Shown: positions 16,243 through 37,047 of the stretch, in pieces
Layout: each line of letters opens with the position of its first letter
Numbering within the stretch: the stretch's first letter is position 1
NCBI GenBank assembly: GCA_016182555.1
Contig: JACPGJ010000007.1
Span: forward strand, 128,053 to 192,052
DNA length: 64,000 bases
Direction of reading: 5' to 3'
Source of the DNA: Candidatus Kerfeldbacteria bacterium
GTDB lineage: Bacteria; Patescibacteriota; Patescibacteriia; UBA9570; XYC2-FULL-38-9
Program-made: the position numbers and the translations under genes
The notes under the pieces: model-generated
What the model was told of the DNA's origin: nothing
The model's database searches: none
The model's input: only the letters and a program-made list of their open reading frames with translations

Positions 16243-16261
16243 TTATTGTGCAAATACGATT

Positions 16262-16292
16262 GCAAGGGGAGTTTGCGCTCCCCTTGCTTTGT
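16262..16292 (+). terminator. rho-independent terminator after the SulP gene
   Basis: Perfect 10-bp hairpin GCAAGGGGAG-tttgcg-CTCCCCTTGC (16262-16287) followed by TTTGT. Confidence 0.5.
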
Positions 16293-16312
16293 ACTCGGAA
16301 ATTCGATACAAT
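16284..16312 (+). promoter_or_regulatory. sigma70-like promoter for tRNA-Ser(GCT) (TTGCTT-N17-TACAAT)
   Basis: TTGCTT at 16284-16289, 17-nt spacer, TACAAT at 16307-16312, ending 13 nt before the tRNA 5' end. The -35 partly overlaps the 3' arm of the upstream terminator. Confidence 0.4.
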
Positions 16313-16325
16313 GCATCAGCAATTT

Positions 16326-16415
16326 GGAGAGGTGGCTGAGTGGTCGAAAGCGCCTCACTGCTAACGAGGTAGGGTGTAAAAGCTCTCGCGGGTTCAAATC
16401 CCGCCCTCTCCGCCA
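16326..16415 (+). tRNA. tRNA-Ser (anticodon GCT), class II, CCA encoded
   Basis: GGAGAGG acceptor stem. D-arm GTGGCTGAGTGGTCGAAAGCGC. Anticodon stem CCTCA/CGAGG with loop CTGCTAA. Long variable arm. T-arm GCGGG-TTCAAAT-CCCGC. 3' end CCTCTCC-G-CCA. Closely parallels E. coli tRNA-Ser(GCU). Confidence 0.85.
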
Positions 16416-16416
16416 A

Positions 16417-18093
16417 ATGAATGGAAAATACACCATTAGTCGTTTACAGCTATATAGGATTATTTTATTATTGATTATCCTAATCAGTATTACTGCCAAT
16501 ATTGTATGGATACTGCGCGATACTAGCCCAGCGTTGTGGGATATTGCCGGGCACTCGCAGCGAAGTGCCTCTATTGCCCAGTTGCTGCATGCCGGTCGGT
16601 TAAGAGACGTATTTGGGTTCGATAGCATTTATCCGCCACTCACCTATTTGGTCACGGCTGTTGGTTTTTTGTTGTTTGGTTTGCATAGCGACATTCCACA
16701 ATATTCATTCTTGCTGTGGTTGGTGTTGATGCTTGTTGCGACATATAGCATCGCAAATACACTTTACCGCGACCGCGGTGTGGCACTATTTTCGACCACG
16801 CTCCTGCTCTGTTACCCATTGCTTGCGCACTTCACGCGCATCTATGATTTAGATTTTCCACTCACGGCGTTGGTAACAGCGACGATTGCAGCATTACTAC
16901 GCACGAACGGTTTTCGCAATCGGCGTTGGGTGGTGGTCACGAGTGTTTGTATTGCGTTGACGCTGCTCACCAAATGGACCGCCGTTCTTTTTTTGGCAAT
17001 TCCCGTAGTGAGTGTGGTTTGCACAACGTTTGTGCAGCAAAAATCAAAACGACGAGTGCTTGTACAACATATTGCTCTCGCACTTGGCATTATTCTGTTC
17101 ATTGCCGGTCCATGGTACTTGGTACACGGCAGTACGGTGGTTTCTTCTGCCCAAGACACACGCAATAATATTTTTTCTGTGCCGTATGAAAATGTGTTGC
17201 GTATAGATAATATCACCTACTACGCGCGGCAATCCGCGAATGGCATGGCGTGGCCACTGAGTGTGTTGGTTGTTATCGGGTTCATTGCATTGTTCTTCCG
17301 CAAACATTCGCAACGTTTTGCGCTGCTAGCCTGGGTAATTGTTCCCTATTTGATTATGACCTTTGCGCTCTACTCAAAAGAAAGCCGCTACTTTTTGCCA
17401 CTTTTTCCGTTGTTTGCAATCGTATCGGGTGCCGGGATTGTTTCATTAAAAAATTACTATCGCGTAGGAGCGATTACGACCTGCCTAATTCTCAGTTTAT
17501 TTTTCTGGACAGAAACATCATGGAGCGTGCGTTTCTTTCCCGAAAAATTTTATCAAACCACGCACCTAAACCAAGGCTACGGCTATCCTGTGCCCACGAC
17601 CACCAAACCCCGTTATGGTTTCACGCAACCAACGCAATATCATGAAAATCTTGCGGAAGTGGTGACCGCCATTCAAGCAGACCTAGCGACTCAGGAAACA
17701 CTACCAGCAACAATTCGTATTGCTGTAGTTCCAAACAGCATTTTTCTGACTGCGCAGGAAATTCAATATATTGCTCGTTTACAAAACCTTGATTCACCAA
17801 GCAACCAATATACCCTCGATTTTTCACTGAGTAGTTATATTCGTCAAGGCTCAACGATATCTTGGCAAGAAAACCTGGCGGCGGCAGATTATATTATCAC
17901 TAAAACCGGTGATCAAGGCCCAAAAATTTGGGGACCAAATTTGAAAAAAATTGCAACCGCAGAAGAACAACACGCCACTCCGTTTGAGCAATTCACTGTC
18001 ATCGGTACCTGGACGCTACACGGCATAGAAGAAACAGACACCACCATGCGTCTCTACAAAAAAACACCTACGCAGCTAACAGATCGCGAATGA
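16417..18093 (+). CDS. polytopic membrane glycosyltransferase, GT39/PMT/ArnT-like (second paralog-like copy in the window)
   Basis: About 559 aa from the ATG at 16417. The ORF track start at 16246 would run through the tRNA and is rejected. About 10 TM helices in the first 380 residues, then a C-terminal soluble domain. Same overall architecture as 2083..3978. Confidence 0.45.
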   Translation: MNGKYTISRLQLYRIILLLIILISITANIVWILRDTSPALWDIAGHSQRSASIAQLLHAGRLRDVFGFDSIYPPLTYLVTAVGFLLFGLHSDIPQYSFLLWLVLMLVATYSIANTLYRDRGVALFSTTLLLCYPLLAHFTRIYDLDFPLTALVTATIAALLRTNGFRNRRWVVVTSVCIALTLLTKWTAVLFLAIPVVSVVCTTFVQQKSKRRVLVQHIALALGIILFIAGPWYLVHGSTVVSSAQDTRNNIFSVPYENVLRIDNITYYARQSANGMAWPLSVLVVIGFIALFFRKHSQRFALLAWVIVPYLIMTFALYSKESRYFLPLFPLFAIVSGAGIVSLKNYYRVGAITTCLILSLFFWTETSWSVRFFPEKFYQTTHLNQGYGYPVPTTTKPRYGFTQPTQYHENLAEVVTAIQADLATQETLPATIRIAVVPNSIFLTAQEIQYIARLQNLDSPSNQYTLDFSLSSYIRQGSTISWQENLAAADYIITKTGDQGPKIWGPNLKKIATAEEQHATPFEQFTVIGTWTLHGIEETDTTMRLYKKTPTQLTDRE

Positions 18094-21687: not shown

Positions 21688-23016
21688 TTATCTATCCAAA
21701 CCAAGTTGGGTAATGGCTTGACGCAAGCTTTTTGCTGTTTTTGGAGAAATAACACTCGACAACCCAAACCGCTTTGCTTCTTTTGTTCGATCTTTCTCCC
21801 GTGCTACTGAGCGAACTTCTCCACCCAGGCCAACCTCTCCCCAGCAAATCGTTTCTGTTGAAACAGCAATATTGCGAAGTGCAGAGACCAATGCTGCGCA
21901 AATTGCCAAATCCATCGCGGGCTCACGAAAAGCACTCCCGCCAACAATATTCAAATATACATCATGCTGTTCAAAGGAACAATCCGCTCGTTGCCCCAAT
22001 ACCGCCAACAATAGATTCAAACGATTCACATCAAAACCAGATGCTTTACGTTGCGGAAACCCAAAACTGGTTTTGGACACCAATGCTTGCACTTCCACCA
22101 AAAAAATACGACTCCCCTCCATCACCGCGGTTAAACACGAACCGGCAACCGCTGATCGCTCTTGCACAAATACCTGCGACGGATCTTGCACTTCTTGCAA
22201 ACCCCGCGCTTGCATATCAAACACCCCCACTTCGTTCGTTGCGCCGAAACGATTTTTCACCGCACGTAATAAACGAAATTGGTGGTGTCGTTCTCCTTCC
22301 AAATACAACACCGTATCAACAATATGTTCCAATGTCTTTGGTCCACCCAACTCCCCGCCTTTGGTCACATGGCCGATAATAATAATCGGAATATTGGTGC
22401 TTTTCGCCACTTCTAAAAAACGCACCGTCGAAGCCTTAATTTGATTAACGCTCCCCGGTTCACTTTCTACACTCGATGACGCCACGGTTTGAATAGAATC
22501 AATAATAACCAACGCCGGTTTGGTTTCCAAAATCGTTTTACAAATGACCTCTACATGTTCTTCACTCACAAACAATAATTGCTGTTGCGCTATACCTAAC
22601 CGGTCAAGGCGTAATTTAATTTGCTGCGCAGATTCTTCGCCAGATACATAGAGCACAGATGCTTGTACACTGCCAGCGATTTGGGCAACAAGGGTAGACT
22701 TACCAATGCCGGGGTCACCGCCAAGAAGAATCAACGAACCAGGGACAATACCACCACCAAGTACGCGATCACATTCGCCAATGCCCGTACTGACTCGTGC
22801 AACAGCGCCTTCTGTTATTTCAGAAAAGCGCAACGGTTTGACTGCAGCAACCGCACCAAGGTTATATGCGCGCTGCTGTTTTGCTGTAGCGGGTAGGTCA
22901 GCGGTACGTTGTTCCAAGGTTCCCCACTTGCCGCATTCTTCGCACCTCCCCGACCATTTCGGAAATTGGGCGTCGCAATTGCTGCAGCTAAAAATAATTT
23001 TTGGTGTTGCACTCAT
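21688..23016 (-). CDS. radA: DNA repair protein RadA/Sms
   Basis: C4 zinc finger (CSNCDAQFPKWSGRCEECGKW). RecA-like Walker A (GGDPGIGKSTL). KNRFG motif (AVKNRFGATNEVGVFDM). Lon-protease-like C-terminal domain. The ORF track start at 23070 would overlap the upstream gene; the internal Met at 23016 is more likely. Confidence 0.9.
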   Translation of the reverse strand: MSATPKIIFSCSNCDAQFPKWSGRCEECGKWGTLEQRTADLPATAKQQRAYNLGAVAAVKPLRFSEITEGAVARVSTGIGECDRVLGGGIVPGSLILLGGDPGIGKSTLVAQIAGSVQASVLYVSGEESAQQIKLRLDRLGIAQQQLLFVSEEHVEVICKTILETKPALVIIDSIQTVASSSVESEPGSVNQIKASTVRFLEVAKSTNIPIIIIGHVTKGGELGGPKTLEHIVDTVLYLEGERHHQFRLLRAVKNRFGATNEVGVFDMQARGLQEVQDPSQVFVQERSAVAGSCLTAVMEGSRIFLVEVQALVSKTSFGFPQRKASGFDVNRLNLLLAVLGQRADCSFEQHDVYLNIVGGSAFREPAMDLAICAALVSALRNIAVSTETICWGEVGLGGEVRSVAREKDRTKEAKRFGLSSVISPKTAKSLRQAITQLGLDR

Positions 23017-23020
23017 AAAC

Positions 23021-24085
23021 CTAATAGGTCGTATCAACAACACTTCCTCCACAACTACAACCAGAAACATCTAATCCTGGGCAAACTCCACACACAGATG
23101 TACTACCCGTATAACCAAAATGATGATCTTCGGTAATATGATTATGCTTGCTGGTTGATGGATTAAAATCTGGGTTATAGTTCAATACCTTCCAACCATA
23201 ACTGTTTGCTCCAATAACATTATATCCAGAAGTAGATTTATTCGTTACAACACAACCACCTTCATTACCACATGCCAGCCAATTATATTGAGCAATGGAG
23301 AGTGAACTGATATTCAAATCAACCGCACCTCCAGAAATATGCCCTTGATCACTACAATCCGGATCAGAAGGATGATCGCCAATACTATTGTCATGTAAAC
23401 ACTGCTGGTAACTAAACGAACGAAACATGTGGTTGGCGGGTATCTTCTTATTAAACTTTGCGTAAAATGTTGCCGCCATTAAATTCCAAGATCCCGCCGC
23501 ATTTGGTGCCAATTTGTGTACTGCCTTGGTAAGCATTTTTTGTGTGTATCGCGAGTCTACCGTAACCAAACCAGTGCACGTGGCATCATCCACGGTATTT
23601 GGACACACCCCTTTCGTATCGGTTGGTAACGGTGGTGCTTCAGATGCTTCAAAATCTTCTACTGGTGGCGTATTGGGTTTTGGAACAACAATGCTAGATA
23701 AGTCGGTCAATTTTGGATTCAAGGTATGCAAAATAAGGTAAGAACTCAATGCAAGCACTAACCCAGCCAAAGCGCTTGTTATTCCATCTTTGGCTTTAGT
23801 AATCGTGCCAGAATTTCCAGCTGCCGCCGCCCAGCGTAAACCATTATACATAATCATTACCGTGGCAAGAATAGCCACCGCACCAACAGCAAATTGATAG
23901 AGCGCTCCCATATAGTCCGCCAAATTGGTGGCAATAATTTTTGAACCAATACCAATTTCTAACTGAACAGGCGGGTTTGTTTGCGCAAATACTACTGCTG
24001 GGAACAAGACAAGAAGCGTCGCAAGAAAAAATTTATTTTTGTGCGTGGTCAATTTCATCTTGAACAATTTTTTTAATGTCATCAT
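23021..24085 (-). CDS. secreted/membrane protein fusing a VirB2/TrbC-pilin-like hydrophobic hairpin to a Cys-rich LAS/M15-type zinc peptidase-like domain
   Basis: 354 aa. Signal peptide (..LVLFPAVVFAQ). Two hydrophobic helices separated by a short polar loop (LYQFAVGAVAILATVMIMYNGL - RWAAAAGNSGTITKAKDG - ITSALAGLVLALSSYLILHTL). Then a domain with a peptidase M15-like SxHxxGxAxD pattern (SDQGHISGGAVDL) and a downstream ExxH (ITEDHHFGY), plus many Cys. Confidence 0.4.
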   Translation of the reverse strand: MMTLKKLFKMKLTTHKNKFFLATLLVLFPAVVFAQTNPPVQLEIGIGSKIIATNLADYMGALYQFAVGAVAILATVMIMYNGLRWAAAAGNSGTITKAKDGITSALAGLVLALSSYLILHTLNPKLTDLSSIVVPKPNTPPVEDFEASEAPPLPTDTKGVCPNTVDDATCTGLVTVDSRYTQKMLTKAVHKLAPNAAGSWNLMAATFYAKFNKKIPANHMFRSFSYQQCLHDNSIGDHPSDPDCSDQGHISGGAVDLNISSLSIAQYNWLACGNEGGCVVTNKSTSGYNVIGANSYGWKVLNYNPDFNPSTSKHNHITEDHHFGYTGSTSVCGVCPGLDVSGCSCGGSVVDTTY

Positions 24086-24782
24086 ACGTTTGAATCCCGC
24101 TGACTATTCTATTATTAATGTAATACGTCGGTGCTTCATCAACATCGAGTGATTTAGCAATGAAATATCCTTGCACGATCATCGATTTTTTTGCGGTATC
24201 CGAGAGACAGGTCGTAAATATATCCGTATCCAACCCTAAGTCGCCCGCCATAGTCACCCACGGACCCAGCACAAATTGAGATTGTTTCTGAAGCAACACA
24301 TCATGATACTGCCAAAATGCTCCCTGGTCTTGTGCACAACGCGCTGCCACAGCAGCATCTTCAGCGTATGGATGGACATTCGGTAAAGGAAAATCTTTCC
24401 ACACATGCAATACATCGCTCGGGTACTCAGCCACAATTTGCGCAATAACGCCGCTCATGGCTGCACAATTCTGACATTCAAAATCACCGAATTCAATAAT
24501 CGTGACTGTCGGTTTTGTCGCACCACGTTGTGGGTCAGTCACAAGTGGGTGTGGTTTTCCTCCTAATATTTCTTTGGGGACAACCGTCACCAATGGATCC
24601 ACTGATCGCGCAATAGTAGAATTATATAAACCTGAGTCATCTTTATGGCGCGCTTTTTCAACGCGCGCATTGATAATTTGTTGTATCACGCCCATCAATA
24701 CAATAGCAGCAACAAAAACGATAACCGAAAAGGTCATGAATAATGTTGATCGATGTTTTGGTTGAATAGGCATAATGCGCAA
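24033..24782 (-). CDS. membrane-anchored thioredoxin-fold DsbA-like thiol-disulfide oxidoreductase (CxxC = CQNC)
   Basis: 249 aa. N-terminal TM helix. FGDFECQNCAAM active-site-like motif. DsbA-like length and layout. Confidence 0.55.
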   Translation of the reverse strand: MRIMPIQPKHRSTLFMTFSVIVFVAAIVLMGVIQQIINARVEKARHKDDSGLYNSTIARSVDPLVTVVPKEILGGKPHPLVTDPQRGATKPTVTIIEFGDFECQNCAAMSGVIAQIVAEYPSDVLHVWKDFPLPNVHPYAEDAAVAARCAQDQGAFWQYHDVLLQKQSQFVLGPWVTMAGDLGLDTDIFTTCLSDTAKKSMIVQGYFIAKSLDVDEAPTYYINNRIVSGIQTYDDIKKIVQDEIDHAQK

Positions 24783-26033
24783 TTATGGTAAGTCAATTTT
24801 CACTAACTTTCCACTCTTTTTATCACGGAAATAGAGCGTGGAACCGTCCTTTCCAACAAAAATGTCATCCACCGTATATGCCGGGTTTCCCTGGTCATCC
24901 ACCGGTACGGCAATACGCTCTTTTAAACCCGTATTGAGATCAACACGATAAATATCATCTGTGGTTCCATCCAAAACATCTGGTTCAATACCCGAACCGA
25001 ACTTCTGCTCTGATGGCACACCACAGTACACAACGGTGCTCGTTGAATTAAATGCGCACTTATCCGGTGAGGTATGTAATTGGAGTTCTTCTCTATTTTT
25101 CCCAATATCATCTCCATTCGCATCTACTAACCACAACGATGGCTGATAACCCGTTGACGCAGAGTACACACTATACAACAGTTGTTGGCCATTGGGTGAG
25201 TATTCGGTTTTGAGACCACGCCCATCTACCACAGCGCCTTTGAAATTTTCTCCATGCAAACCGATAAATGTGAGCTCTTGGTCCGAGCCATTCACAAATT
25301 CTGAATACGTCGCCACCACATTTCCCGTCGGTGACCAGTCGACATTCACTTTATCACCATTTTGCCCAAGTGACTCCAACGTACGAATGCTGGAACCATC
25401 TGGGTTTGCCACTCCCAACGCCCGCCGCTCTTCTTCCTCGGCCATATATTTAAAAGCAATCTGGCTCGAGTTTGGAGAAAAATCAAAATCTTCAAATTCT
25501 TTCGGTAATGTCACTTGACGTTTCGTATCTAAATGATAATACACATTGGAACCATCGGGGAATTCTAAAATCACTTCATTACTGGTATCAGACCAGGTCA
25601 CATGATCAACATAAGGAAATTGCGCTTCAGCAATTTGAACAATATCGCCATTGTCATTGACAGAATAAAATTTTCCATCATCTGGGTTGTAATACCGAAT
25701 ACTTCCACTGCTACTTGGCGCCGGATTCTGCGCCTCTGAATTGGGTGTTAATACATCTGTTTCGGTTAAACCACCGTTGGCCACAGGGCTCACGCCAGGC
25801 AACCCTCCGCCACCACCGTCATTGGTATTACCGCCACCATTGATATTACCGAGTGGTTCATTCACATTGGGTAAAGCACCATTTGTATTATTCACGTTTT
25901 CATTGCCGCCTGGTGTCGTGCCTGGGGTACCACGAAAAAAAACAATATACAGCAAATAGCCTAAACCAACAGCAATGATCAACAGGATCACTGCGTAGAA
26001 AATACGTTTATTTCGCTCAGATTGTATAGGCAT
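24783..26033 (-). CDS. membrane-anchored TolB-like beta-propeller protein
   Basis: 416 aa. N-terminal TM helix. Gly/Asn-rich linker. Repeated TolB-type blades (YNPDDGKFYSV, WSDTSNEVILEF, FSPNSSQIAFKY, WSPTGNVVATYS, YSPNGQQLLYSV). Confidence 0.5.
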   Translation of the reverse strand: MPIQSERNKRIFYAVILLIIAVGLGYLLYIVFFRGTPGTTPGGNENVNNTNGALPNVNEPLGNINGGGNTNDGGGGGLPGVSPVANGGLTETDVLTPNSEAQNPAPSSSGSIRYYNPDDGKFYSVNDNGDIVQIAEAQFPYVDHVTWSDTSNEVILEFPDGSNVYYHLDTKRQVTLPKEFEDFDFSPNSSQIAFKYMAEEEERRALGVANPDGSSIRTLESLGQNGDKVNVDWSPTGNVVATYSEFVNGSDQELTFIGLHGENFKGAVVDGRGLKTEYSPNGQQLLYSVYSASTGYQPSLWLVDANGDDIGKNREELQLHTSPDKCAFNSTSTVVYCGVPSEQKFGSGIEPDVLDGTTDDIYRVDLNTGLKERIAVPVDDQGNPAYTVDDIFVGKDGSTLYFRDKKSGKLVKIDLP

Positions 26034-26069: not shown

Positions 26070-27221
26070 TCATAGCACGCTCCCACTGACAAATAATGAA
26101 TAGAGAACTTTTAAGGTGTCGAAATTCAGTAATAAGGCTGGGCTCAATGTCATAAAGAGCATCACCAAAAGAATGATAAAGCCAATCATTAAAATACCAA
26201 ATATAATAATGATGATAAGACCAATGACAATTCCACGAAGCATGGGCGACCGAGCCAACAATGTCAGTACAACCTTCCACGGACCCGGGGGTGCGAGCTT
26301 GGCTGCACGAGAGAGCAATGCTTCTAAGCCACCACCGGAGCCACGTTGACCTTGCTGTTCTTGGCTTGCATCTTCCTCATCTTCTGTTTCTTCGTTATTC
26401 TCCTCTTCATCTTCATCTTCGCCTTGTTCCGTTTGTTCTTGGCGGCGTTGTCTTAATAACTCCGCTTGACGGGCTCCTTCCTCTTCACTGTTTTTCGCAT
26501 CAGCACCGTCATCTTTTTCTGGTGAAGTATCATCTTCTGTATCTTGTCGTGATCCTTCTGCTGCACCGGCAGACGCTTCTTCATCTTGCTCGTCTTGTTC
26601 ATCTGCATCATTAAATTCGTTATCATCATCGTCATCTTCTTCGTTCAATTCATCTTCTGCTTCTTCGTCATCATTATCATCTTCATCTTCGCCTGGCCAC
26701 TGTTTCAGTTGTTCAAATCCATCAACAATTTCACGAACACGCGCAGCTGGAGATTGCCCTCGAAGTTTCGGATTCTGCGCAACAGCCACATTCTCCCCTT
26801 CTTTCTGGCGTTCTGCACGCAACGCGGCTGGTGTGTTGGGTTTTGGCGAAATAGTTTGCTTATCCGAATCATCATCCGCATTATCAGAACTATCATCAAT
26901 TGAAGCATGTTGTAGACGAGTCATATCTGCAGCCTGAGCTGCCTCTGCATCCGAAATATCTGTCGGTGTTTGGGCAATGCGTTGTCCAAAACTAGCAATG
27001 TCTGGATAAGAACGATCTAATTGTTGAATCGCTTTCTGTGCAGCCGCAGAAGGATTTCCCGTTCGTTGTTGAAGCATTCGGGCATAACGCGCTGCTGCCT
27101 GCTGTTGCGGGGTAGACGTCGTGGTAGTATTCAGCAATCCTAACGCCTCATTCAATGTTTTGGTCATTGAACGTTTAATCCGTTGCCGTGTCTGTTGTTG
27201 GTTGGAAGGAGTAAGCGCCAT
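26070..27221 (-). CDS. highly acidic (Asp/Glu-rich) protein with a C-terminal hydrophobic membrane anchor, T4SS-cluster-associated
   Basis: 383 aa. Long DE-rich low-complexity middle section. C-terminal TM segments (IVIGLIIIIIFGILMIGFIILLVMLFMTL). Confidence 0.4.
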   Translation of the reverse strand: MALTPSNQQQTRQRIKRSMTKTLNEALGLLNTTTTSTPQQQAAARYARMLQQRTGNPSAAAQKAIQQLDRSYPDIASFGQRIAQTPTDISDAEAAQAADMTRLQHASIDDSSDNADDDSDKQTISPKPNTPAALRAERQKEGENVAVAQNPKLRGQSPAARVREIVDGFEQLKQWPGEDEDDNDDEEAEDELNEEDDDDDNEFNDADEQDEQDEEASAGAAEGSRQDTEDDTSPEKDDGADAKNSEEEGARQAELLRQRRQEQTEQGEDEDEEENNEETEDEEDASQEQQGQRGSGGGLEALLSRAAKLAPPGPWKVVLTLLARSPMLRGIVIGLIIIIIFGILMIGFIILLVMLFMTLSPALLLNFDTLKVLYSLFVSGSVL

Positions 27222-27223: not shown

Positions 27224-27556
27224 TTATCCAAAAATCTTTTTTCGCAACACACCATCGTCATGCAGATACTGGTCCTGAAACAATTGTCGCTGACGCTCCG
27301 CTTCGGTCGCGCTACATTCTCCGCGTTCTTCTTGCCAATCAATACGATAGAGTAACAGTGCATATAACGCCATCATCGCTGCGAGCACCGCTTCTCCCGC
27401 TTCCTCTATTTTGGTTTGTGGTGCTAGAGTATTCGCCACCTGTTGTAATTGTTCGGTCTTCTCACGCAACGCTGCCCGTACACGCTCTATCTCTTGGTCA
27501 ATAGCAACACCAGAATCCAACGATGCATGTTGATGTTCAATAACAAGATTATCCAT
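27224..27556 (-). CDS. small coiled-coil hypothetical protein, T4SS-cluster-associated
   Basis: 110 aa, helical. Tightly packed between neighbours on the same strand. Confidence 0.35.
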   Translation of the reverse strand: MDNLVIEHQHASLDSGVAIDQEIERVRAALREKTEQLQQVANTLAPQTKIEEAGEAVLAAMMALYALLLYRIDWQEERGECSATEAERQRQLFQDQYLHDDGVLRKKIFG

Positions 27557-28177
27557 TTATTGCCAGGTGATATTATCCACTTTCCAATTCCCGTTGACAT
27601 ACAAAAAATCGACCAATGCGTACTGCGTAAACGCACGCGGATCTTCATTTGTTTTCGTCTCTACACGCCGAGTGCCCACACGTGCAGTGGCGGATTCTTT
27701 AGCCGTATAAGCTGTTAATTCAACTGAATTAGCGGTCGTGGAAATACCGTAATAGTCTTCTGGAATACCATCGGTGTGGTTTTTTTCAATAAACGCGAGG
27801 GATTCTTGCTGGAACTCTTCGGTCATAAATGGTTCCAGGCGAGTAATATTTTCATAATTATTCCGGTTCGAAAAGCTGCCATAACGTTCTACAACAATAC
27901 GCGCCAAACGCATTACCAGTTCTTCTTGTGTCGTCTGTGCCGTTGTGTCCGTATTCGTATTGTCGCCACCGGTGTTGGTATTTGTTCCATCACCGCCCGT
28001 GCCACTATTCACATTTGGTAAAGCATTATTCGTATTCTGCTGTTCATTCGTGTTCTGAGTGTTCGTATTATTATCGTCTGTTGAGGAACGCCGAGCAAAC
28101 AATATACCGGCAACGATTAAGCCAACAACAGCCAGCGCACAGAAAACCAGAATGATGATTTTAAGAGATTTTTGCAT
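27557..28177 (-). CDS. bitopic membrane protein with a C-terminal NTF2-like domain, candidate VirB8-like component
   Basis: 206 aa. N-terminal TM helix (IIILVFCALAVVGLIVAGILFA). Asn/Thr-rich linker. ~120-aa C-terminal domain of VirB8-like size and topology. Assignment is by architecture and position next to VirB4. Confidence 0.35.
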   Translation of the reverse strand: MQKSLKIIILVFCALAVVGLIVAGILFARRSSTDDNNTNTQNTNEQQNTNNALPNVNSGTGGDGTNTNTGGDNTNTDTTAQTTQEELVMRLARIVVERYGSFSNRNNYENITRLEPFMTEEFQQESLAFIEKNHTDGIPEDYYGISTTANSVELTAYTAKESATARVGTRRVETKTNEDPRAFTQYALVDFLYVNGNWKVDNITWQ

Positions 28178-28198: not shown

Positions 28199-30109
28199 TT
28201 ATTGTTGATTGTTTTGTTCTTCAAATTCTTTTTTACTCTGTTCCAACTCCAGTAACTGGCGTGGATCAGAAGTAATAATTTTATCTTCAACTGGAGAAGC
28301 CACTACTTGCATCGCCACATGTTTTGGACCAGCAAAGAAAATCCCCTGACCAACAGCACCTTCAAGTAATAAATATTTTTCTCCGTCGGTTAAAATAAAT
28401 GTTTTCTGAATCCGGTCAATAGAAGCGGGTGATTGTTTCAACAAAATTTGCATGGCAGAGTTGGTCACAATCGCTGCACCATAAGGTGAACGTAAAAAAT
28501 CGGCCACATCTTGGGTAATGGTAGTGACACCAAGGTAATACTTACGACAGCGTTTAACCAACGCATAAATAAATTTGGCAGAATCATCATTTTGCATCAA
28601 CCACCAAGCTTCGTCGATAACTAAAATTCGTTTTTTCAGTTCTGAACGAATCGTATTCCAAATATAATTCACAATCATGTAAATGGCGATCGGTTTCAAT
28701 TCGTCTTCTAAATCACGAACGGAAAATACCATCAGCTGATTAGTGGTATCGATATTCGTAGGCGAATTGAATAACCCGGCGAATGTACCAGTGACATATT
28801 TTTGTAACTTAATCACCATTTCTTCCGTGCCTTCAAACCCTTCCAAAATACTCAAGAAATCGGTCATGAGCGGCGGTTCAATGTTATGCAAGTCACTATC
28901 GGGTGTAATATCTTTTTTGGCGTAAGTTTCAATAAGCGCGCGATCCAGAATAGAATCTTCTGCGGCGCTGACTTTGCCCAACATAATACGCAGCATGCCT
29001 TTAATGGTAATCACTGCGGAACGAATAATATCCGCTGGGCGGTCTGCTCCACCAACGGGTTTTGGTAAATCAAACGGGTTAATTTTCACTTCGGAATTCA
29101 ACGAAATATTCATAAACGTTCCACCCACCGAATCAGATAAATGCTTATATTCATTTTCCGGGTCGATAATCATCACGTCCACGCCCAACATGAGTGAACG
29201 CAATACCTCTAACTTGACTGTATAACTTTTCCCGGCACCCGATGTGGCAAATACCACGGCATTGGCATTTTGCAAACTAAAACGATCAAACACAATCAAG
29301 CTACCGTTGTGGCGGTTCACGCCGTACATAATGCCATCGTCAGAAGTAAGATCCGAAGAAATAAATGGGAACGACGACGCGCACGGCGAAGAATTCATAT
29401 TAAAGAAAATCTCTAATTCATCCAAACCAATCGGCAGCGTGGAATTAAACCCTTGTTCGGCTTGATAATACACCCGTTTTGCCACCACCAACCGCGAACC
29501 AAACAAACTATCGAGTTGGTCTACACGGTCACTCAATTCTTTTTCATTGTCGGCATACACCGATACATAAAGCGCGTATTGAAAAAATTTCTCTGTTCCT
29601 TGGGTCAAGTCATCGCGCAGTTTTTCAATATCGCGCAGGGCTGTTTCTCGCAGCGGGTCACGCGGCGCTCCTTTTTCACGGTCAGAAAATAATTGCGCTT
29701 CCAGGGCACCCACTTTATTCTTCAACTGCTTCAAAATCACCTCTGCTTTTACCGGATAGAAAAACATACTAATATCTAATGCCGCATTCAGCAAAATAAT
29801 CGGTGCAAACCAACCCACGGCAATATACCGTGGATAGGTGACCACAAATAATGTACTCACCAATTTCCCACCCAAATCGACATGGCGCGCTTCCACGCTC
29901 ATTGCCGATGGTGCAATTAAATCCAGTACCGAAGTGACACCCTTGCGGTACACTTGTGCAGCCTGCAAAACGGACACTTCTTCTTTTTGTTGCTGGGCAG
30001 CAGGTAGCGGTGCGCTACTCGCTTGCGATTGCTGCTTCACCAATTCCTGAAAACTAAATTCGGGTGCTTTCGATTGTTGTGATGAACGATTTTTTAAAAA
30101 ATTAAACAT
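28199..30109 (-). CDS. virB4: type IV secretion system ATPase, VirB4/TraC/CagE family (ATPase portion plus the preceding core region)
   Basis: 636 aa. Gram-positive VirB4-type region (LIAPSAMSVEARHVDLGGKLVSTLFVVTYPRYIAVGWFAPIILLNAALDISMFFYPV). Walker A (FATSGAGKSYTV). Walker B (RILVIDEAWWLM). Confidence 0.8.
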   Translation of the reverse strand: MFNFLKNRSSQQSKAPEFSFQELVKQQSQASSAPLPAAQQQKEEVSVLQAAQVYRKGVTSVLDLIAPSAMSVEARHVDLGGKLVSTLFVVTYPRYIAVGWFAPIILLNAALDISMFFYPVKAEVILKQLKNKVGALEAQLFSDREKGAPRDPLRETALRDIEKLRDDLTQGTEKFFQYALYVSVYADNEKELSDRVDQLDSLFGSRLVVAKRVYYQAEQGFNSTLPIGLDELEIFFNMNSSPCASSFPFISSDLTSDDGIMYGVNRHNGSLIVFDRFSLQNANAVVFATSGAGKSYTVKLEVLRSLMLGVDVMIIDPENEYKHLSDSVGGTFMNISLNSEVKINPFDLPKPVGGADRPADIIRSAVITIKGMLRIMLGKVSAAEDSILDRALIETYAKKDITPDSDLHNIEPPLMTDFLSILEGFEGTEEMVIKLQKYVTGTFAGLFNSPTNIDTTNQLMVFSVRDLEDELKPIAIYMIVNYIWNTIRSELKKRILVIDEAWWLMQNDDSAKFIYALVKRCRKYYLGVTTITQDVADFLRSPYGAAIVTNSAMQILLKQSPASIDRIQKTFILTDGEKYLLLEGAVGQGIFFAGPKHVAMQVVASPVEDKIITSDPRQLLELEQSKKEFEEQNNQQ

Positions 30110-30114
30110 AGTGA

Positions 30115-30846
30115 TTACTGAATAGAGGTATCAATTTGCATCTGCGTCATATCTTCTATCCGACGTTTCTGTTTGGTGACCGGATTATAGGTATTATAAT
30201 ACAACTCAATCAATGCTTGTGTGTCCAAAATTTGTGTTTGCAAACTAATCGATTGTAATCCACTAATGACCACACTCAAACGACGCGCCATTTCTACTTT
30301 ATATTGTGCTAATTGGTCTTCATGGAGCTTCACAATGCTCGCCGGTGAAATAGTTTCCTGCAACCGCGACCAAAAATTTTTCTTTTTATTCGATGTCGGT
30401 GAAAATGGCACTATCACATAAAATTTCTTATCCATAATATCAGCTTCTTCCACTAATTTACTCACGAATGAACGATAAGAAAGCGTTTGTTTGCGCAACA
30501 GCTCATTCTCGTGCTGCCGCGCGAGGAGTTGCAACTTATCTAAATATTTTTCAATGTTGAGCTTTCTGGATTGAATCACCACTTGCAATGGAAAATCAAT
30601 GGTATTTAAAAACGATACATACCCTTGAATAATAGCGGTTTGCTCATCTTCAGATTTCAATGCAAAATTCAAACTCGAGACAAGAATAACTGTCCGCAGT
30701 GTTCCATCTTTCATAATCACAATGTCATCACGAATTTCGGCAAATGGCAGATGCTGCTGTGCAGATGGGAGCTGGCCGTTTTTTTTCTTCACCTGGCGAA
30801 CCGGCCGTTTTTTAATTTGTTTGATTGGTTTATTTTTTTTGCTCAT
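30115..30846 (-). CDS. T4SS-associated protein resembling the extreme N-terminal segment of Gram-positive VirB4 ATPases (possible split virB4, 5' part)
   Basis: 243 aa. Lys-rich N-terminus, then DDIVIMKDGTLRTVILVSSLNFALKSEDEQTAIIQGYVSFLNTIDFPLQVVIQSRKLNIEKYL, a pattern I associate with VirB4 N-termini. TAA stop at 30115-30117, 5 nt before the ATG of the VirB4 ORF, in a different frame. Confidence 0.45.
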   Translation of the reverse strand: MSKKNKPIKQIKKRPVRQVKKKNGQLPSAQQHLPFAEIRDDIVIMKDGTLRTVILVSSLNFALKSEDEQTAIIQGYVSFLNTIDFPLQVVIQSRKLNIEKYLDKLQLLARQHENELLRKQTLSYRSFVSKLVEEADIMDKKFYVIVPFSPTSNKKKNFWSRLQETISPASIVKLHEDQLAQYKVEMARRLSVVISGLQSISLQTQILDTQALIELYYNTYNPVTKQKRRIEDMTQMQIDTSIQ

Positions 30847-30862: not shown

Positions 30863-31390
30863 TTAACGTTGCAACAAATTACTCCCTCCGACCGGAGCCG
30901 ATGATGCAGATGCTCCCCCGCCTCCTCCACTCGCCACAACTTTACTGGTTTTTGGTACGTTCTTCCCGGCACGCAATACATCTTCTGTTGCATACATTCC
31001 TCCGGTATCCACCATCAACGACATCGCTGCTAAATGCGATTGCGTAACCTCTTTCTGAATCGACTGCGCTTGCGTTGAGACAGCTGGTGTTGTTGCTTGC
31101 TGTTCTGAATAGGGAATGCGCGCCCAAAGTTTCAACCGTGGTCGGCGTAATGTTTGTACTAAATTTAATACGACATAGTGCATAGATTGCCCATTCACTT
31201 TTGCAAATGCCATTCCCCCGCCAATCATCACCGTTAACACCAGTGCCGGAATAAATAATACCAAAGATAAAATAGAATACCACAAAAATGCCACACCCAG
31301 AGTAATCAAAATAATCACAAATTGACGAGCAGAAATCGGACCAATAATTTTGGATTCAACTTCGATAAATTGTGGTACAACAAATTGCAT
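30863..31390 (-). CDS. small two-TM protein, candidate VirB3/PrgI-like T4SS component
   Basis: 175 aa. Two adjacent TM helices (FVIILITLGVAFLWYSILSLVLFIPALVLTVMIGGGMAF). Located directly upstream of the VirB4-type genes, as VirB3 is in canonical clusters. Confidence 0.4.
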   Translation of the reverse strand: MQFVVPQFIEVESKIIGPISARQFVIILITLGVAFLWYSILSLVLFIPALVLTVMIGGGMAFAKVNGQSMHYVVLNLVQTLRRPRLKLWARIPYSEQQATTPAVSTQAQSIQKEVTQSHLAAMSLMVDTGGMYATEDVLRAGKNVPKTSKVVASGGGGGASASSAPVGGSNLLQR

Positions 31391-31411: not shown

Positions 31412-33403
31412 TTAATAACGAAGCTGGCGATTCAAATCGGAGATGGCATCAAATTCCGCTTGCATGAGCGTGTCTTTTCCGCTTTGCGCCCATTGACGAA
31501 TAATCTCTTCCACTGGCACTGTTTTTTCTAAACTTTCTTTTCCAATAGATAAATACAGTTGGTGCAGTGGACTCGCAAACCACGCTTGCATGCCTTCCGC
31601 TTTTTTCGATAACGATTCTTCTTCCAGTAAAGCCAGTTTATCAATAATATGTTTGGCGGCGTCTTGTGGTTGTTCAGCAAGGCGGCGGAAATCTTCCAGA
31701 TTCATATTTTGTAATTCTTCGAGTGGACCCATCACCACTGGCTGTGCGGCTTCTTGACTGTCATGCGAAAAAGATGCCCCCGATTGTGCTGCAGCAAATT
31801 GTCCCGGATGAACAATATCGGTCATGATTGATTTTTTATTTGTGTTATTCATATCCATTGTATCAAAAATAGGGTTCATATTGGCGAACATATCTTCGAC
31901 CATAATATGAGCACTTGCTTGTTCCTCCGCACGCTTGGCATCATGTTTTTTTTGACGGTCAATCTGTTCTTGCACCATGGCAAGAGTGGGGGCAAATATG
32001 TTTGAAGGTTGCGTTGTCTTCACCCGTTTAGTTTCTTTGCCGCCCTGCAAGGCTTGTTGATACAATTCATCAGCCGTGTGCAAAATGGTATCTACTTGTG
32101 CAGCGGGAATATTCACTCCCCCTTCTTGTGAAGGCCGGGTCAATGCATCGCGTGCCTCTGGTTTGCTGCGCACTCCCCGCAAATACGACACGACAATACT
32201 CAAAAACCGTTTTTCTAATTCCAGCGATTCAAATAACAATTTGTATTCACCTAACACATGTTGGGCGACCGTATGATATTGGTGATCGCTCAACAATAAT
32301 GGAGATTCAGCAACATCAGTAACAGCGGGGGTAGACACAACTGGCAGTGGAGGCACAGGCATTGGTGGGAGTGGTTGGGGTGTTGGAAGCTGAGGCAATG
32401 GGAGTGGCGAAGCTGGCGGCTGCACTGTTTTCTTTGGTGGAGGGGGGAGCGGCATCGGTGGCAGTGGAGGCACAGGAGCAACAGTCTTTTCTTCTCCAAT
32501 AACCACTGGTTGGGCATACATTTTTACCGCTTTCTTTACTTGTTTGGAAATAGGAAGCGGTTTGCCGTGGTCGTCTAACCCCGCCAAAAAACGCATAGCC
32601 TTTAACTCCGGCTCTGGTATGGGAACATGGGTATCTTCGACCACCCCCATATCAAAAAGATGCACCGTTCCGGTGACCGGGTCATCAAAATAAAACGTCG
32701 ATTCAGAACCTTCCGGTGTTTTAGAGGAGAGTGATAATTTATGGTCAAACTTTAACAAATGTTCAATGCGTTCTTTATCATCAGCGGACAGGGCTTGTAC
32801 ATTTTTACTGGAATTCATGTACTCCACAATCAACAACGGTTCTGGTTTACGGGTCGCTAAAAATTCTTTCCAATCGTGAAGCCAGCTGGCGATACTTGGT
32901 TCCACTGTCGTTGTCCCAATGGTGATATCTGTTTTACCAATATGTGCAGTCGACCGTGACAATGCTTCACGATATTTCTGCTTTACCACATCACGCTCAC
33001 CATAATCATCAATAATCAACAACCGACGTTTCAATTTGCGCAAAATCTCTTCGAAGTCTTTTTTAAATAGCCCTTCTCCATGGCGTGAAAGAACATTTTC
33101 CACTTCCGTTGGCGCTAAATCACCAATCACAAACCATTTCGCTTCGGCCATCACCGTTTCTAATTCTGCATAGAGACCCGGTTGTTGTTTGTCTAGCTCC
33201 GGATACTTCGTGCTGATAAGCTTTTGAATACTATTCACCAAATGAAATACTGTATCATTATCGTTATCGTCCAACGCCGTATTCAAAGCATGAATGGCTT
33301 TATTGATTCCATCTGGTGTATTCAATTCAAAAGATTCCAGTGGTCGGGCAATGGGTGGTACGGCTGGTGCTGTTGGCATATTTTTTTGTATTGGTGTATC
33401 CAT
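31412..33403 (-). CDS. T4SS-cluster hypothetical protein with a central proline-rich tract
   Basis: 663 aa. No clear TM helix. Pro-rich region (PPLPPMPLPPPPKKTVQPPASPLPLPQLPTPQPLPPMPVPPLPV). Confidence 0.4.
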   Translation of the reverse strand: MDTPIQKNMPTAPAVPPIARPLESFELNTPDGINKAIHALNTALDDNDNDTVFHLVNSIQKLISTKYPELDKQQPGLYAELETVMAEAKWFVIGDLAPTEVENVLSRHGEGLFKKDFEEILRKLKRRLLIIDDYGERDVVKQKYREALSRSTAHIGKTDITIGTTTVEPSIASWLHDWKEFLATRKPEPLLIVEYMNSSKNVQALSADDKERIEHLLKFDHKLSLSSKTPEGSESTFYFDDPVTGTVHLFDMGVVEDTHVPIPEPELKAMRFLAGLDDHGKPLPISKQVKKAVKMYAQPVVIGEEKTVAPVPPLPPMPLPPPPKKTVQPPASPLPLPQLPTPQPLPPMPVPPLPVVSTPAVTDVAESPLLLSDHQYHTVAQHVLGEYKLLFESLELEKRFLSIVVSYLRGVRSKPEARDALTRPSQEGGVNIPAAQVDTILHTADELYQQALQGGKETKRVKTTQPSNIFAPTLAMVQEQIDRQKKHDAKRAEEQASAHIMVEDMFANMNPIFDTMDMNNTNKKSIMTDIVHPGQFAAAQSGASFSHDSQEAAQPVVMGPLEELQNMNLEDFRRLAEQPQDAAKHIIDKLALLEEESLSKKAEGMQAWFASPLHQLYLSIGKESLEKTVPVEEIIRQWAQSGKDTLMQAEFDAISDLNRQLRY

Positions 33404-33446: not shown

Positions 33447-36400
33447 TTATTCCTCGTCACTTATAATATTATTTTTTTTGTTTTTATTGGATTGAGTGAA
33501 GACTCCATCACGTACCGCGCGAATAAATTCTTCCGGTACACCTAAATTTTTTAAATTCTCTGGATCGGATGCATCGCTATGTTTAGCAATATAGTCACGA
33601 ATACGCTGACGCGTTAATTCTTTCAACCACCGGAAACCCGTTTCGTAGGAATAATCGTGGCCGTAGCGAATCAATTTCTGAATATCGCTTGGAGCGAGTG
33701 TTGTATCATTACCTTCTACGACACCAAAAACGGTATTGGCCACATTGCTTGCCTGCCGCCTGTTAATACCACCAGCTTGTAGAGCCGCCCGTTCATCCTT
33801 CCCGCGCGGACGCATCACTCCAGCAGCGTTTGAAACGTATGCCGCATCCAAATCAATATTGTCGTCAGTAAATTTTGCCACTAACTTCTGCATATAACGC
33901 ATAGATTCTTGATCACTCATTCCTAACTCCTCCTTTAAATGGTGGGTACGGAATGCTTCCATGGCGCCGTGTCCGGACCCTGCATGCGCGCGGGCATCTG
34001 CATTATCACTTTGACGCAAATACTGGTCAAAACCGAACCATAATAACCCGCCCGTTTCTTGCAAGCGTTTGTGCACCGCTTCGGCCAAATATCGATTTTT
34101 TTCTTTTTTGGCACGAGTTAAATAACCCATCAATTCTGTACCATCATCAATATTCTGCACTTGCTGGTACTGTTCATCTACCAATTTTTTGTGTTCAGGG
34201 TTACTCGTGTGTCGGCGTGCTTCCAATGTTGCAGACTCAGCCGTTGCGGCAACCAGTTGGCGTTCGCGTTCTGATAATTCATTATCTAAAATACTTCCTG
34301 CATTGTCGAAGAAATCAGCCGTTGCCGGATCAATAACATGCACGTCATGTTGATCATCATTACGTCGAACATACTCGTTTTTCACTTTATTCAATGAGCT
34401 ATTTAATGCTCCTGTTAAACCTAAACGTAGTGCCCCTGGCGCATAGGAGCCATGTTGCTTAAATAATTTTTTAGAATTAATACTTCCCTCACGCAACGCC
34501 TGTTGCACACGTTCAATTTGAGCTTGAAGAGCCGTCTTATCCTCCGGGGTAGTCGCTGCGGCTAAATCTGTTTTCAATTGTGCAATAAGATCTTGAATAA
34601 ACCGACGAACTGGCTCAATAGTCGTATCCAATCTGGTATCTGCGTCTGACATGACACCAGATCGCATATTTAATAAACTCCTTGTGTGCTCATCTTGTGA
34701 ACGATAATTTTTATTATAATCTTCCAAACGTTTCTTTTGATCATAGAGCCCCTCATCCAACTTATACATATCTGCTCCAAAACGGCGCTCTAACTCTGCA
34801 TCAATATCCGCCTCTGAAGGGGGTGGTGTTCCTGCTCTTTGCGCTGCAGCAGTTAATTCTGCGGCGAGTTCTGGTCTGGCTTTCTGTTTATTTTTTCTAA
34901 TCTTTCTTCTCATCAAAAGACCAAAAGAATTTTCTGCTTTATCGGCTAACCGTTTATATGTTCGTAGACTTAATGGATCATAATCTTCATATACCTTTAC
35001 GGCATCATCAGATGTCACCCCAATGCCAATGCCGGTCAAATTATCCATACTGGCAAATGCACCGTTCATATAGCCATGGCCCATAATATCACGATCCGCC
35101 ATCCCTCTCGCCCTCTTCTTAGATTCATTCAAAAAGACTTCCTGTTTTCGTTCGCTGGCTTTAGAAACGCCCGTTTTCAAATTCTTCCACGCTTTGCCAG
35201 GGTCGGAAAGCACGGTATTGGTAAAATGAGAAAAGTTATCGAGTGGTTGTAACACGTTGGAAGCAAATCGCGATGCACCACGTGCTCTAGCGGAACGATC
35301 GTCATCACTGGCAATGGCATCCAGCCGGCCACGGGCGCTTGACAATGCACGACCAGCCAGATATTGCTGATTGAGACGATAGCTGGCTTGACGAGCTGCA
35401 CCCAATAACTTCCCCGCTCCTTGGCGCACTTGGCTAAGCTGTTTCGTAAATTCTGTGGCCATCTCGTTCACCATTTTCAAAGACGCGGCTAACATCAACA
35501 TCATGACAATGTAATTCACAATGGTGGCCGGCGTTACGGCCCGCAACTGGCCGGTTTCTGGTGATTTCGAATACGTAGCAGGTAGCTGGGTTTGCACCTT
35601 TTCGTCAAACGCTCCATTTAAGGGTGACCCATTGTACCCATACGCCGTATCGGCCTGTGTGCCATACGCAATAGAAAGAGACAACCATAAGAAAAATGTA
35701 ATGAGGGGGCCAACGATGACATAACGCCCAAACATATCCCACCATTTTTGCGCAATACGGCTTTGGGTTTGGGGTAAAATGCGCCCAATCCAGGCAAGCG
35801 GAGAAATGGATATGAGAAACCAGAGCATGACGATGCGGAAAATGAGCGTCACCACATAGACCGTAAGAATAATGGAAAGCCCGGTTAACATGAAACCCGC
35901 AGCGGCAAAACCAGCAATCAAAAACGGTAACCCCTTAAGATCACTAACTACGGAATCTGAATCTCCTAAAGATAAATCCAATATTGATGCCGGGTTCAAA
36001 ACACCCAAAATATTTCGCCCAATCGCATTGCTAAACGAGCCGCCAAACGTGGCCATGGCAACTGTCGCCGCATCGGTGAATACGCCACAAATCGTACGGG
36101 AAAAATTGATTAAAATAGCCGCAATAATAAAATCAGGTAGCGTTTTTTTCCACGAATATTTTTCAATACGCAACACCGTACCTAAAGCGATGATGATAAG
36201 AATCATGGAGAAAAAAATGTTGCAAACATCACGCACCAGCTTCCATGACGTTACGACACCGGGGACATTCACAAATGCGGAGCGCGCATCTGCGCCGATG
36301 AATACGGATTGCCAGACATCGCCGTAGGGGTAGGTAATAACAATATCTAAAATAAAAGCGAGAATCATAGCAATAATCCCATTGATCATAATGGGAACAT

Positions 36401-36671: not shown

Positions 36672-36728
36672 TTTTGGGTCATCACTGCTGTTTGTACAGC
36701 ATCTAAAATACGAATTAATGACTATTTC

Positions 36729-36737
36729 ATTATATCA
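36729..36737 (-). promoter_or_regulatory. extended -10 promoter (TGnTATAAT) upstream of the VirB6-like operon
   Basis: Minus strand reads TGATATAAT, about 55 nt upstream of the ATG at 36671. No convincing -35. Confidence 0.3.
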
Positions 36738-37033: not shown

Positions 37034-37047
37034 TACCTAAAATTTTT

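Follow-up and report, generated by a model that had tools for sequence, protein, structure and literature searches.

What would a protein do that joins the membrane hairpin of a VirB2-type pilin to a cell-wall peptidase, and that is encoded at the edge of a type IV secretion system (T4SS) gene cluster? The question is raised by one gene in a 64,000-nucleotide stretch of DNA from Candidatus Kerfeldbacteria bacterium, the whole of which is called the window here. A first-pass annotation of this stretch had proposed such a fusion, and an open reading frame (ORF) of 354 residues was present in the ORF list exactly where it had been described, at 23021 to 24085 on the minus strand with the stop codon counted. 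The product is a 100% match to the NCBI entry ‘hypothetical protein HYV32_03225’ of Candidatus Kerfeldbacteria bacterium, from a 293-kb contig. The source belongs to the ultrasmall Patescibacteria (Candidate Phyla Radiation). Independent metagenome assemblies, including loci L001, L004 and L005, contain orthologues that are 40-55% identical to it, and HYV32_03225 is therefore a real and conserved gene.

HYV32_03225 is, with high confidence, a fusion composed of a signal peptide, a pilin-like hairpin, a linker and a predicted extracytoplasmic zinc peptidase of the M15B family that is probably disulfide-bonded. Support for the domain identities is good. The connection to a T4SS is drawn from the fusion and from the order of the genes, and the activity, the cleaved bond and the target are inferred.

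The pilin-like N-terminal region

Kyte-Doolittle hydropathy revealed three separate hydrophobic segments in HYV32_03225, at residues 18-37, 58-85 and 100-123. The first is preceded by a Lys-rich start and ends in VFA/Q, as is typical of a Sec signal peptide, and an x-V-x-A/(Q, E or D) pattern at the end of the h-region is conserved across the alignment of the fusion family. The signal peptide was assigned from hydropathy and the translation to residues 1-35 (23981 to 24085, minus strand, as for all parts of the gene), with a hydrophobic core at 18-34 and probable cleavage after VFA.

The two remaining segments form the helices of a VirB2-like pilin module (residues 40-123; 23717 to 23968). The module contains an LEIGIG motif, a first transmembrane (TM) helix at 58-85, a loop, predicted to be cytoplasmic, that carries AAGN..KAK, and a second TM helix at 100-123 that ends in LNP. 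The Pfam T4SS_pilin model (PF18895) matched residues 55-119 with an E value of 2e-8 and 34.6 bits (cut-off 26.6), and the match spans profile positions 5-68 of 71. The same model matched 17 of the 20 fusion-family members, one of which was also matched by TrbC/VirB2. The VirB2/TrbC pilin topology that the first-pass annotation had read after the signal peptide was thereby borne out. A simpler arrangement, in which the signal peptide is followed by one ordinary TM segment, was ruled out by the three separate hydrophobic segments and by the extension of the Pfam match across both helices.

The orientation of the hairpin was judged from the charges that flank it. The net charge is -1 at residues 36-57, +3 in the loop (84-99) and -4 at 124-157, a pattern that fits an N-out, loop-in, C-out topology; the C-terminal domain would therefore lie outside the cell. 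Residues 124-157 (23615 to 23716) form a 34-residue linker that is rich in Pro and acidic residues. The linker is poorly conserved and variable in length across the family alignment, and its predicted local distance difference test (pLDDT) scores were low in a full-length AlphaFold model. That model was built from a 2-sequence alignment, had a pLDDT of 41 overall, was unusable and was excluded from the fold search.

HYV32_03225 thus has a predicted signal peptide, two helices and a short, positively charged loop, and it lies in a one-strand gene train with VirB4, a TraC-like N-domain ORF and PrgI, as does its orthologue in L005. These properties are shared with the VirB2/TrbC-like pilins (PF18895) described from Patescibacteria, which likewise have a signal peptide and a two-TM hairpin and come from VirB4 clusters; Southlakia epibionticum and Nanosynbacter lyticus have arrays of them. 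In a 2025 survey, VirB2-like pilins recognized through PF18895 are reported near virB4 in 1,135 assemblies, often as arrays (Quinonero-Coronel et al., PMC12102498). However, the described pilins are small stand-alone proteins (about 100-130 residues), often in tandem arrays, whereas HYV32_03225 has 354 residues and continues after the second TM helix into a linker and then an enzymatic domain of about 190 residues. Unlike in the pilin arrays, no stand-alone pilin was found beside it: a hidden Markov model (HMM) of the family's pilin module recovered no further pilin-like ORF among those of the window, although this HMM was built from the fusion subfamily alone and divergent stand-alone pilins could escape it.

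Family and fold of the C-terminal domain

The identity of the C-terminal domain (residues 158-345; 23051 to 23614) could not be read from curated models. Neither Pfam nor NCBIfam, VanY and M15 models included, matched this part of HYV32_03225 even at E≤1, and PDB searches with the domain by single-sequence phmmer or a 2-sequence profile returned nothing meaningful. The peptidase assignment therefore rests on a family profile and on the predicted fold. A word-indexed protein search gave just 3-4 relatives, and an exhaustive HMM search was needed to assemble the family. Run with the C-terminal profile against 1.84 billion representative sequences, it returned 27 proteins, 18 of them at E<1e-10; these were mostly 310-376 residues long and carried the domain in the corresponding C-terminal location. 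The lowest-scoring nine matches (P0021-P0029) were all above the 25-bit cut-off of Pfam VanY (PF02557), a model that also directly matched 11 of the 20 members of the family alignment (E≤0.01).

An alignment of the domain from 18 sequences that are 30-55% identical (A4) showed C161, C170, R222, Q227, C244, H249, D256, E319, H322, C335 and P336 to be invariant. When the A4 profile was compared with the PDB, the best matches were BaLdcB (6.6e-7), BsLdcB/YodJ (1.2e-6) and VanXYc (1.5e-6), followed by LysB4, SpLdcB/DacB, VanY and Ply500. In the alignment with BsLdcB, the His, the Asp and the His of the ExxH motif of the family fall on ‘SEHQTGLAMD’ and ‘EPWH’, the location of H185, D192 and H244; the distance from Asp to His in this alignment, counted by hand, is 52 residues and agrees with that from D192 to H244 in BsLdcB. 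HISGGAVD (H249-x6-D256; 23318 to 23341) therefore supplies the first two predicted zinc ligands, and E319-D-H-H322 (23120 to 23131) the predicted catalytic Glu and the third ligand, with E319 aligned to the Glu of ‘EPWH’. R222 (23420 to 23422) and Q227, in FRSFSYQQ, align to ‘YRSYDRQ’ of LdcB, which makes R222 the equivalent of Arg120 of SpLdcB. The zinc ligands of LdcB have been defined crystallographically, and Glu204 and Arg120 of SpLdcB are catalytic helpers (PMC4087270).

The fold was examined with an AlphaFold (AF2) model of the domain alone, built from the 18-sequence alignment (pLDDT 89.6; predicted template-modelling score 0.86). A Foldseek search of the PDB with this model returned LdcB, VanXY or VanY chains at all of ranks 1-16. 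The top five (BaLdcB, BsLdcB, VanXYc, VanY and VanXYg) had a probability of 1.00, E values of 1.6e-4 to 7.6e-4 and template-modelling scores of 0.42-0.51, and ranks 6-16 had probabilities of 0.66-0.99. VanX, MepA, a Streptomyces DD-peptidase and Hedgehog N-domains came after these, so that every meaningful match was a LAS fold. Among viral models (BFVD), M15B endolysins and large phage proteins with M15B domains matched. An M15B (VanY/LdcB-type) LAS fold with a predicted His-Asp-His zinc triad, Glu and Arg is well supported by this model together with the family profile.

The M15/LAS identity put forward in the first-pass annotation is in keeping with these results, as is its description of the domain as Cys-rich, since all 10 Cys residues of the protein are in the C-terminal part. 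Its estimate of the size was too large: the folded domain comprises about 190 residues behind the 34-residue linker, and not about 230. The motifs it had cited, SxHxxGxAxD and EDHH, held in part. HISGGAVD and EDHH are present, as is FRSFSYQQ, but the Ser of the first motif is displaced (S245-D-Q-G-H249); the same displacement is seen in the two closest relatives, while most family members have an exact S-x-H.

Comparison with the characterized M15B peptidases (PF02557; BaLdcB 4jid and 4mph, BsLdcB 4ox3, SpLdcB 4ox5, VanXYc 4mur, VanY 5hnm) reveals a common LAS fold, the same H-x6-D...E-x-x-H arrangement and an upstream Arg in an ‘RS...Q’ motif. Both are also extracytoplasmic and membrane-tethered, by prediction in the case of HYV32_03225. 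HYV32_03225 differs in falling below the Pfam threshold, in the displaced Ser and in the distance from D256 to H322, which is 66 residues as against 47-52 in LdcB and includes a Cys-containing insertion of 15-20 residues. It also has 10 Cys, probably forming five disulfides, none of which is found in LdcB or VanY, and its anchor is a pilin hairpin where theirs is a single TM helix or a lipobox.

Such differences would be expected if the domain were an inactive LAS-fold module, Hedgehog-type or degenerate, that acts as an adhesin head for peptidoglycan or a ligand and tethers the T4SS or the pilin to the wall. The failure to reach any curated VanY or M15 model, the displaced Ser with the extra residues that, compared with LdcB, lie between D256 and E319, and the Hedgehog N-domains among the weaker fold matches are all consistent with this. 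However, R222, H249, D256, E319 and H322 are invariant among sequences 30-55% identical, as for an enzyme under purifying selection, and the Ser in question does not coordinate the metal (PMC4087270). A catalytically dead head is very unlikely because the catalytic set is invariant.

The architecture itself is rare and recurrent. About 20 clusters at 50% identity carry the fusion, among the 1.84 billion representatives searched, and precomputed Pfam tables label several relatives T4SS_pilin+VanY (PF18895+PF02557); P0024 and P0025, two of the nine weakest HMM matches, are T4SS_pilin+VanY by Pfam itself. The first-pass annotation knew of no described fusion of this kind. As a domain combination it is visible in precomputed domain tables, and it is undescribed within the literature searched on Patescibacterial T4SSs, where no discussion of a pilin-peptidase fusion was found. 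Scans for related loci gave two marginal partial matches among genome contigs (L002 and L003) and none among metagenome contigs.

The T4SS operon and the VirB1 position

The T4SS pilin domain of the fusion already links the protein to a T4SS, and a second link was sought in the gene order. Twelve minus-strand genes run from 36671 down to 21688 with intergenic gaps of at most 43 nucleotides. HYV32_03225 is the last secretion-related gene of this conserved T4SS operon; the train contains VirB4 and PrgI, and the gene sits at the 3' edge of the operon, in line with the first-pass annotation, which had placed it at the edge of a T4SS-like cluster. The order polytopic protein, PrgI, split VirB4, ..., DsbA-like protein, fusion recurs in L005, a contig of an NCBI metagenome-assembled genome in which the orthologue (P0005) has precomputed PF18895+PF02557 labels. 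The fusion is at the 3' end of the VirB6-like/PrgI/split-VirB4 operon in both loci long enough to show it, and the 3' module (propeller-like protein, DsbA-like protein, fusion and radA) is seen again in L004, with parts of it in L001 and L006. A scan of the operon for promoters and terminators gave 41 sites, a number indistinguishable from that in shuffled sequences (36.5 ± 6.1), and speaks neither for nor against internal promoters. An origin of the fusion gene in a phage or plasmid was set aside in view of its chromosomal context, with radA, recG, clpB and dnaG nearby.

The gene immediately upstream encodes the DsbA-like protein, and its 3' end overlaps the start of the fusion gene by 53 nucleotides. 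This neighbour precedes the fusion gene, with an overlap, in four independent loci (L001, L004, L005 and L006). The first-pass annotation had supposed that it helps to fold the Cys-rich domain; the neighbour itself proved to be conserved and overlapping, and the conserved arrangement is suggestive of such a folding role.

Compared with the L005 proteins, VirB4 is 82% identical and its N-domain 68%; RadA follows at 60%, the propeller-like protein at 56% and PrgI at 51%, and the DsbA-like protein and the fusion are each 40% identical. The last two, both extracytoplasmic, evolve much faster than the core of the machine.

The relationship of the C-terminal domain to the wall hydrolases of other T4SSs was then considered. 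The 2025 survey relates the Patescibacterial T4SS to the monoderm MPF-FATA class; its authors rarely found VirB1 homologues linked to VirB4 in these bacteria and suggest that other hydrolases may take their place (PMC12102498). The best relatives of the domain that have no pilin module (P0021 and P0026) are TM+SLT+VanY proteins, and the two SLT+VanY members on long contigs are encoded directly after VirB4 in PrgI/TraC-like/VirB4 clusters (L007, L008 and L009). An hhalign comparison of the C-domain family with the VanY half of SLT+VanY proteins gave a probability of 99.5% and an E value of 7.5e-23. Because of this match and the location of the SLT+VanY genes directly after VirB4, the domain is placed by sequence comparison in the VanY lineage that occupies the VirB1 position in Patescibacterial T4SSs.

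The Patescibacterial family of this position (P0021-P0074) keeps an N-terminal TM segment and SLT and swaps its peptidase half between VanY, C39-like, M23 and NlpC/P60 domains; where named, its members are from Berkelbacteria or Patescibacteria. Gram-positive VirB1-like hydrolases likewise swap the peptidase half.

The TM+SLT+VanY proteins (P0021, P0026, P0034 and P0039; L007-L009) are VirB1-like bifunctional hydrolases of monoderm T4SSs, of the PrgK or TraG-pIP501 type. They resemble HYV32_03225 in the homologous VanY domain, the N-terminal membrane anchor and the PrgI/split-VirB4 setting; by sequence, HYV32_03225 too would be a membrane-anchored peptidoglycan hydrolase (M15B domain plus hairpin) within a VirB4 operon. 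It differs in that it has no glycosidase domain, SLT, lysozyme and glucosaminidase domains having been sought by Pfam and found no match, where the related proteins have SLT. It also has a pilin hairpin in place of a single TM helix and a Cys-rich domain paired with DsbA, and its gene is found at the operon's 3' end, five genes downstream of VirB4. When the remaining sizeable ORFs of the 64-kb window were scanned with Pfam, no other wall-hydrolase domain was found. The VirB1-like function suggested by the first-pass annotation gains support from the VirB4-adjacent relatives and from this lack of a competing hydrolase domain, and we infer the function itself.

A T4SS-dedicated, zinc-dependent M15B peptidoglycan peptidase that fills the VirB1 slot, and whose pilin module takes the enzyme to the assembly site for wall remodelling, is the reading favoured here, and it has about an even chance of being correct. 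The protein would be exported by Sec and the signal peptide cleaved after VFA. The two pilin helices would enter the membrane as a hairpin, leaving the loop on the cytoplasmic side and the C-terminus outside, as hydropathy and charge suggest. The co-translated, membrane-anchored DsbA-like neighbour would oxidize the 10 Cys residues and so stabilize the decorated LAS fold, a step suggested by the conserved overlapping gene order. The pilin module would then recruit the enzyme, as a pilin is recruited, to the VirB6/VirB3/VirB4 assembly site, where the 34-residue flexible linker would give the peptidase reach to the wall. There the H249/D256/H322 zinc site, with E319 and R222, would cut the stem peptides of peptidoglycan, and local opening or remodelling of the wall would let the secretion channel or pilus pass. 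HYV32_03225 would in this way take the slot of the TM+SLT+peptidase (VirB1-like) proteins of other Patescibacteria and of Gram-positive T4SSs. A functional analogy is offered by ChiX of Serratia marcescens and by the virion-associated M15 peptidases of phages, LAS/M15 peptidases that let export (ChiX; PMC5778951) or injection (the phage enzymes) cross peptidoglycan; these belong to unrelated machineries and have neither a pilin module nor a DsbA partner.

Several observations weigh against the favoured reading. Two have been given above, the absence of any Pfam or NCBIfam match to the domain and the displaced motif Ser. In addition, LdcB and VanY, structurally the nearest relatives, are carboxypeptidases, which trim stem peptides and leave the mesh closed; a hole-making role would therefore need endopeptidase specificity. 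The gene sits about 4 kb downstream of VirB4, unlike the VirB4-adjacent SLT+VanY genes. The functionally unrelated radA is equally syntenic and the syntenic loci are all fairly close relatives (VirB4 82% identical), so gene order alone is weak evidence. Finally, it is unproven that PF18895 proteins form pili, the reviews granting only the ‘potential to elaborate conjugative pili’ (PMC12857230).

HYV32_03225 may instead be a housekeeping LdcB/VanY-like LD- or DD-carboxypeptidase that trims the cell's own peptidoglycan, with the hairpin as a recycled anchor and the location in a T4SS operon without meaning. Its top sequence and fold matches (BaLdcB, BsLdcB, SpLdcB and VanY) are wall-maturation carboxypeptidases, it lies between two housekeeping-type genes, the DsbA-like one upstream and the equally syntenic radA downstream, and in reduced genomes closely spaced trains on one strand often contain genes with no functional connection. 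However, the anchor is a specific T4SS_pilin domain, retained in 17 of 20 relatives, and not a generic single TM segment, and the nearest relatives without a pilin module occupy the VirB1 position directly after VirB4. One would also expect a core wall enzyme to be common across the phylum, whereas this family amounts to about 20 clusters. A housekeeping role is accordingly considered unlikely.

A further observation on the same module comes from the relatives, in which a second pilin-like fusion, with a pilin-like N-terminus and a Cys-rich repeat domain, is encoded two positions upstream of the gene for the DsbA-like protein. This second fusion is found at 1020-2036 in L004 (338 residues) and at 10001-11164 in L005 (P0003), and is absent from the window between 26033 and 26070. 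P0003 has no precomputed PF18895 call and resembles the N-terminal region of HYV32_03225 by BLAST only. Because the relatives have this second protein, the pilin hairpin may be a general carrier of surface domains in the lineage; its presence points to a T4SS-linked surface module, which is again at odds with a housekeeping role.

Display on a pilus and the meaning of the fusion

If pilin hairpins carry surface domains, HYV32_03225 could be a genuine minor or tip pilin, the hairpin of which polymerizes into the T4SS filament and presents the peptidase head outside, where it would act on a host wall during epibiotic attachment. The wall breached would then be that of the host, for effector delivery or nutrient uptake, and not the producer's own. 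A pilin module that scores above the PF18895 cut-off is what this proposal would predict, as is a C-terminus predicted to lie outside, behind a flexible linker. HYV32_03225 is also the only pilin-like ORF found in the window (within the reach of the fusion-subfamily HMM, which divergent stand-alone pilins could escape), and in the called gene tables of relatives the sole T4SS_pilin gene flagged by Pfam is the fusion (P0005; L005 and L006), suggesting a display scaffold. Its structural neighbours include virion-associated M15B peptidases of phage injection machines. Host-facing proteins often diverge fast, and the fusion is 40% identical between loci in which VirB4 is 82% identical; however, the DsbA-like protein has diverged equally, so rapid divergence does not set the fusion apart.

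The biology of the group provides some motive for the proposal, since the Patescibacterial T4SS of Southlakia epibionticum is described as essential for epibiotic growth in PMC12857230 and PMC11665869, the second of which also calls the role of T4SSs in Patescibacteria ‘completely unknown’. Nevertheless, according to PMC12857230, no pilus has been demonstrated for Patescibacterial systems, and nothing on host wall chemistry or specificity supports a host-directed enzyme.

The size of the head is a structural obstacle. To our knowledge, no VirB2-family pilin has a folded domain of about 190 residues, and the helical packing of filaments, as in F- and T-pilus structures, may not tolerate such a domain on every subunit. 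A minor or tip pilin acting on a host wall is, like the housekeeping enzyme, an unlikely alternative. The broader notion that VirB2-family pilins are display scaffolds, their filament or conduit being built from or tipped with subunits that bear heads (a peptidase here, Cys-rich repeats in relatives), is distinctly doubtful. If it held, HYV32_03225 would be part of a ‘self-drilling’ or host-wall-cutting pilus and the first catalytic VirB2-type pilin, and ultrasmall epibionts would have a concrete mechanism for breaching the wall of a host.

As a conserved operon member that joins a pilin module to a wall peptidase, HYV32_03225 is a candidate for the missing wall-opening activity. The fusion shows that a pilin hairpin can carry cargo domains. 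The C-terminal domain is small and expressible, and the identity of its substrate (own or host muropeptides, cut by carboxy- or endopeptidase activity) would tell whether the system targets the wall of the host. There is also a lesson for annotation: the domain, invisible to Pfam and NCBIfam in this protein, was recovered through a family profile and a model made from 18 metagenomic relatives.

Operon members and other features of the window

The operon is headed by a 1074-residue polytopic membrane protein (33447-36671; minus strand, as for all twelve genes) with at least nine TM segments, which is VirB6-like by topology and position only and has no Pfam match. It is followed by a 663-residue protein (31412-33403), also with no match in the Pfam scan and 34% identical to the product of a 721-residue gene in L005, and by a PrgI/VirB3-like protein (30863-31390; Pfam PrgI, 1.5e-8, 35.5 bits, cut-off 27). 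VirB4 is encoded by two ORFs, one for a TraC-like N-domain of 243 residues (30115-30846; NCBIfam VirB4-type matches) and one for the 636-residue ATPase (28199-30109; P-loop_TraG, 1.8e-27). The same split into adjacent ORFs was seen in every Patescibacterial cluster retrieved: at 28199-30846 (minus strand) in the window, 5134-7783 in L005, 7162-9964 in L007 and 1949-4802 in L009.

Three genes with no match in the family scans come next, separated by gaps of at most 36 nucleotides. They encode a 206-residue protein with an N-terminal TM segment (27557-28177), which is 49% identical to the product of the gene after VirB4 in L005, a 110-residue protein (27224-27556) and a 383-residue acidic protein (26070-27221). 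The last is extremely acidic and of low complexity, with long runs of D, E and Q and, by hydropathy, a pair of hydrophobic TM segments at the C-terminus. The 416-residue protein that follows (24783-26033) has one N-terminal TM segment and weak beta-propeller-like matches, and orthologues 56-59% identical to it occupy the same position in L004 and L005. The membrane-anchored DsbA-like thioredoxin (24033-24782; Pfam Thioredoxin_4, 9e-21, and DSBA, 2e-9) then leads into HYV32_03225. The train ends with radA (21688-23070). As listed, the radA ORF starts 50 nucleotides inside the fusion gene; the conserved part of RadA begins at an internal Met (‘MSATPKIIFSC’, at about 23016), 5 nucleotides past the stop codon of the fusion gene.

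Beyond the head of the operon, and adjoining it, the window has a stretch of low GC content at about 36000-42000 (0.37-0.39, as against about 0.45 elsewhere). Within it lie a DUF3800 gene (37048-37692) and, at 37814-39186, several small two-TM ORFs, which had no family match in one scan with the fusion-subfamily pilin HMM and one Pfam scan. This stretch may be an acquired island. A giant ORF of 3594 residues (43122-53906, minus strand) has an N-terminal hydrophobic segment, 118 Cys residues and a single Pfam match, to VWA at residues 2304-2452; it may encode a large surface adhesin. Beside it, a 295-residue protein (42046-42933, plus strand) has 17 Cys residues and three putative metal-binding motifs of the MopE type (PF11617, E 1e-28). 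At the other side of the operon, a tRNA-Ser(gct) gene (16326-16415, plus strand) lies within the 5' end of a listed ORF for a PMT-like glycosyltransferase (16246-18093, TTG start), the true start of which is probably downstream of the tRNA gene.

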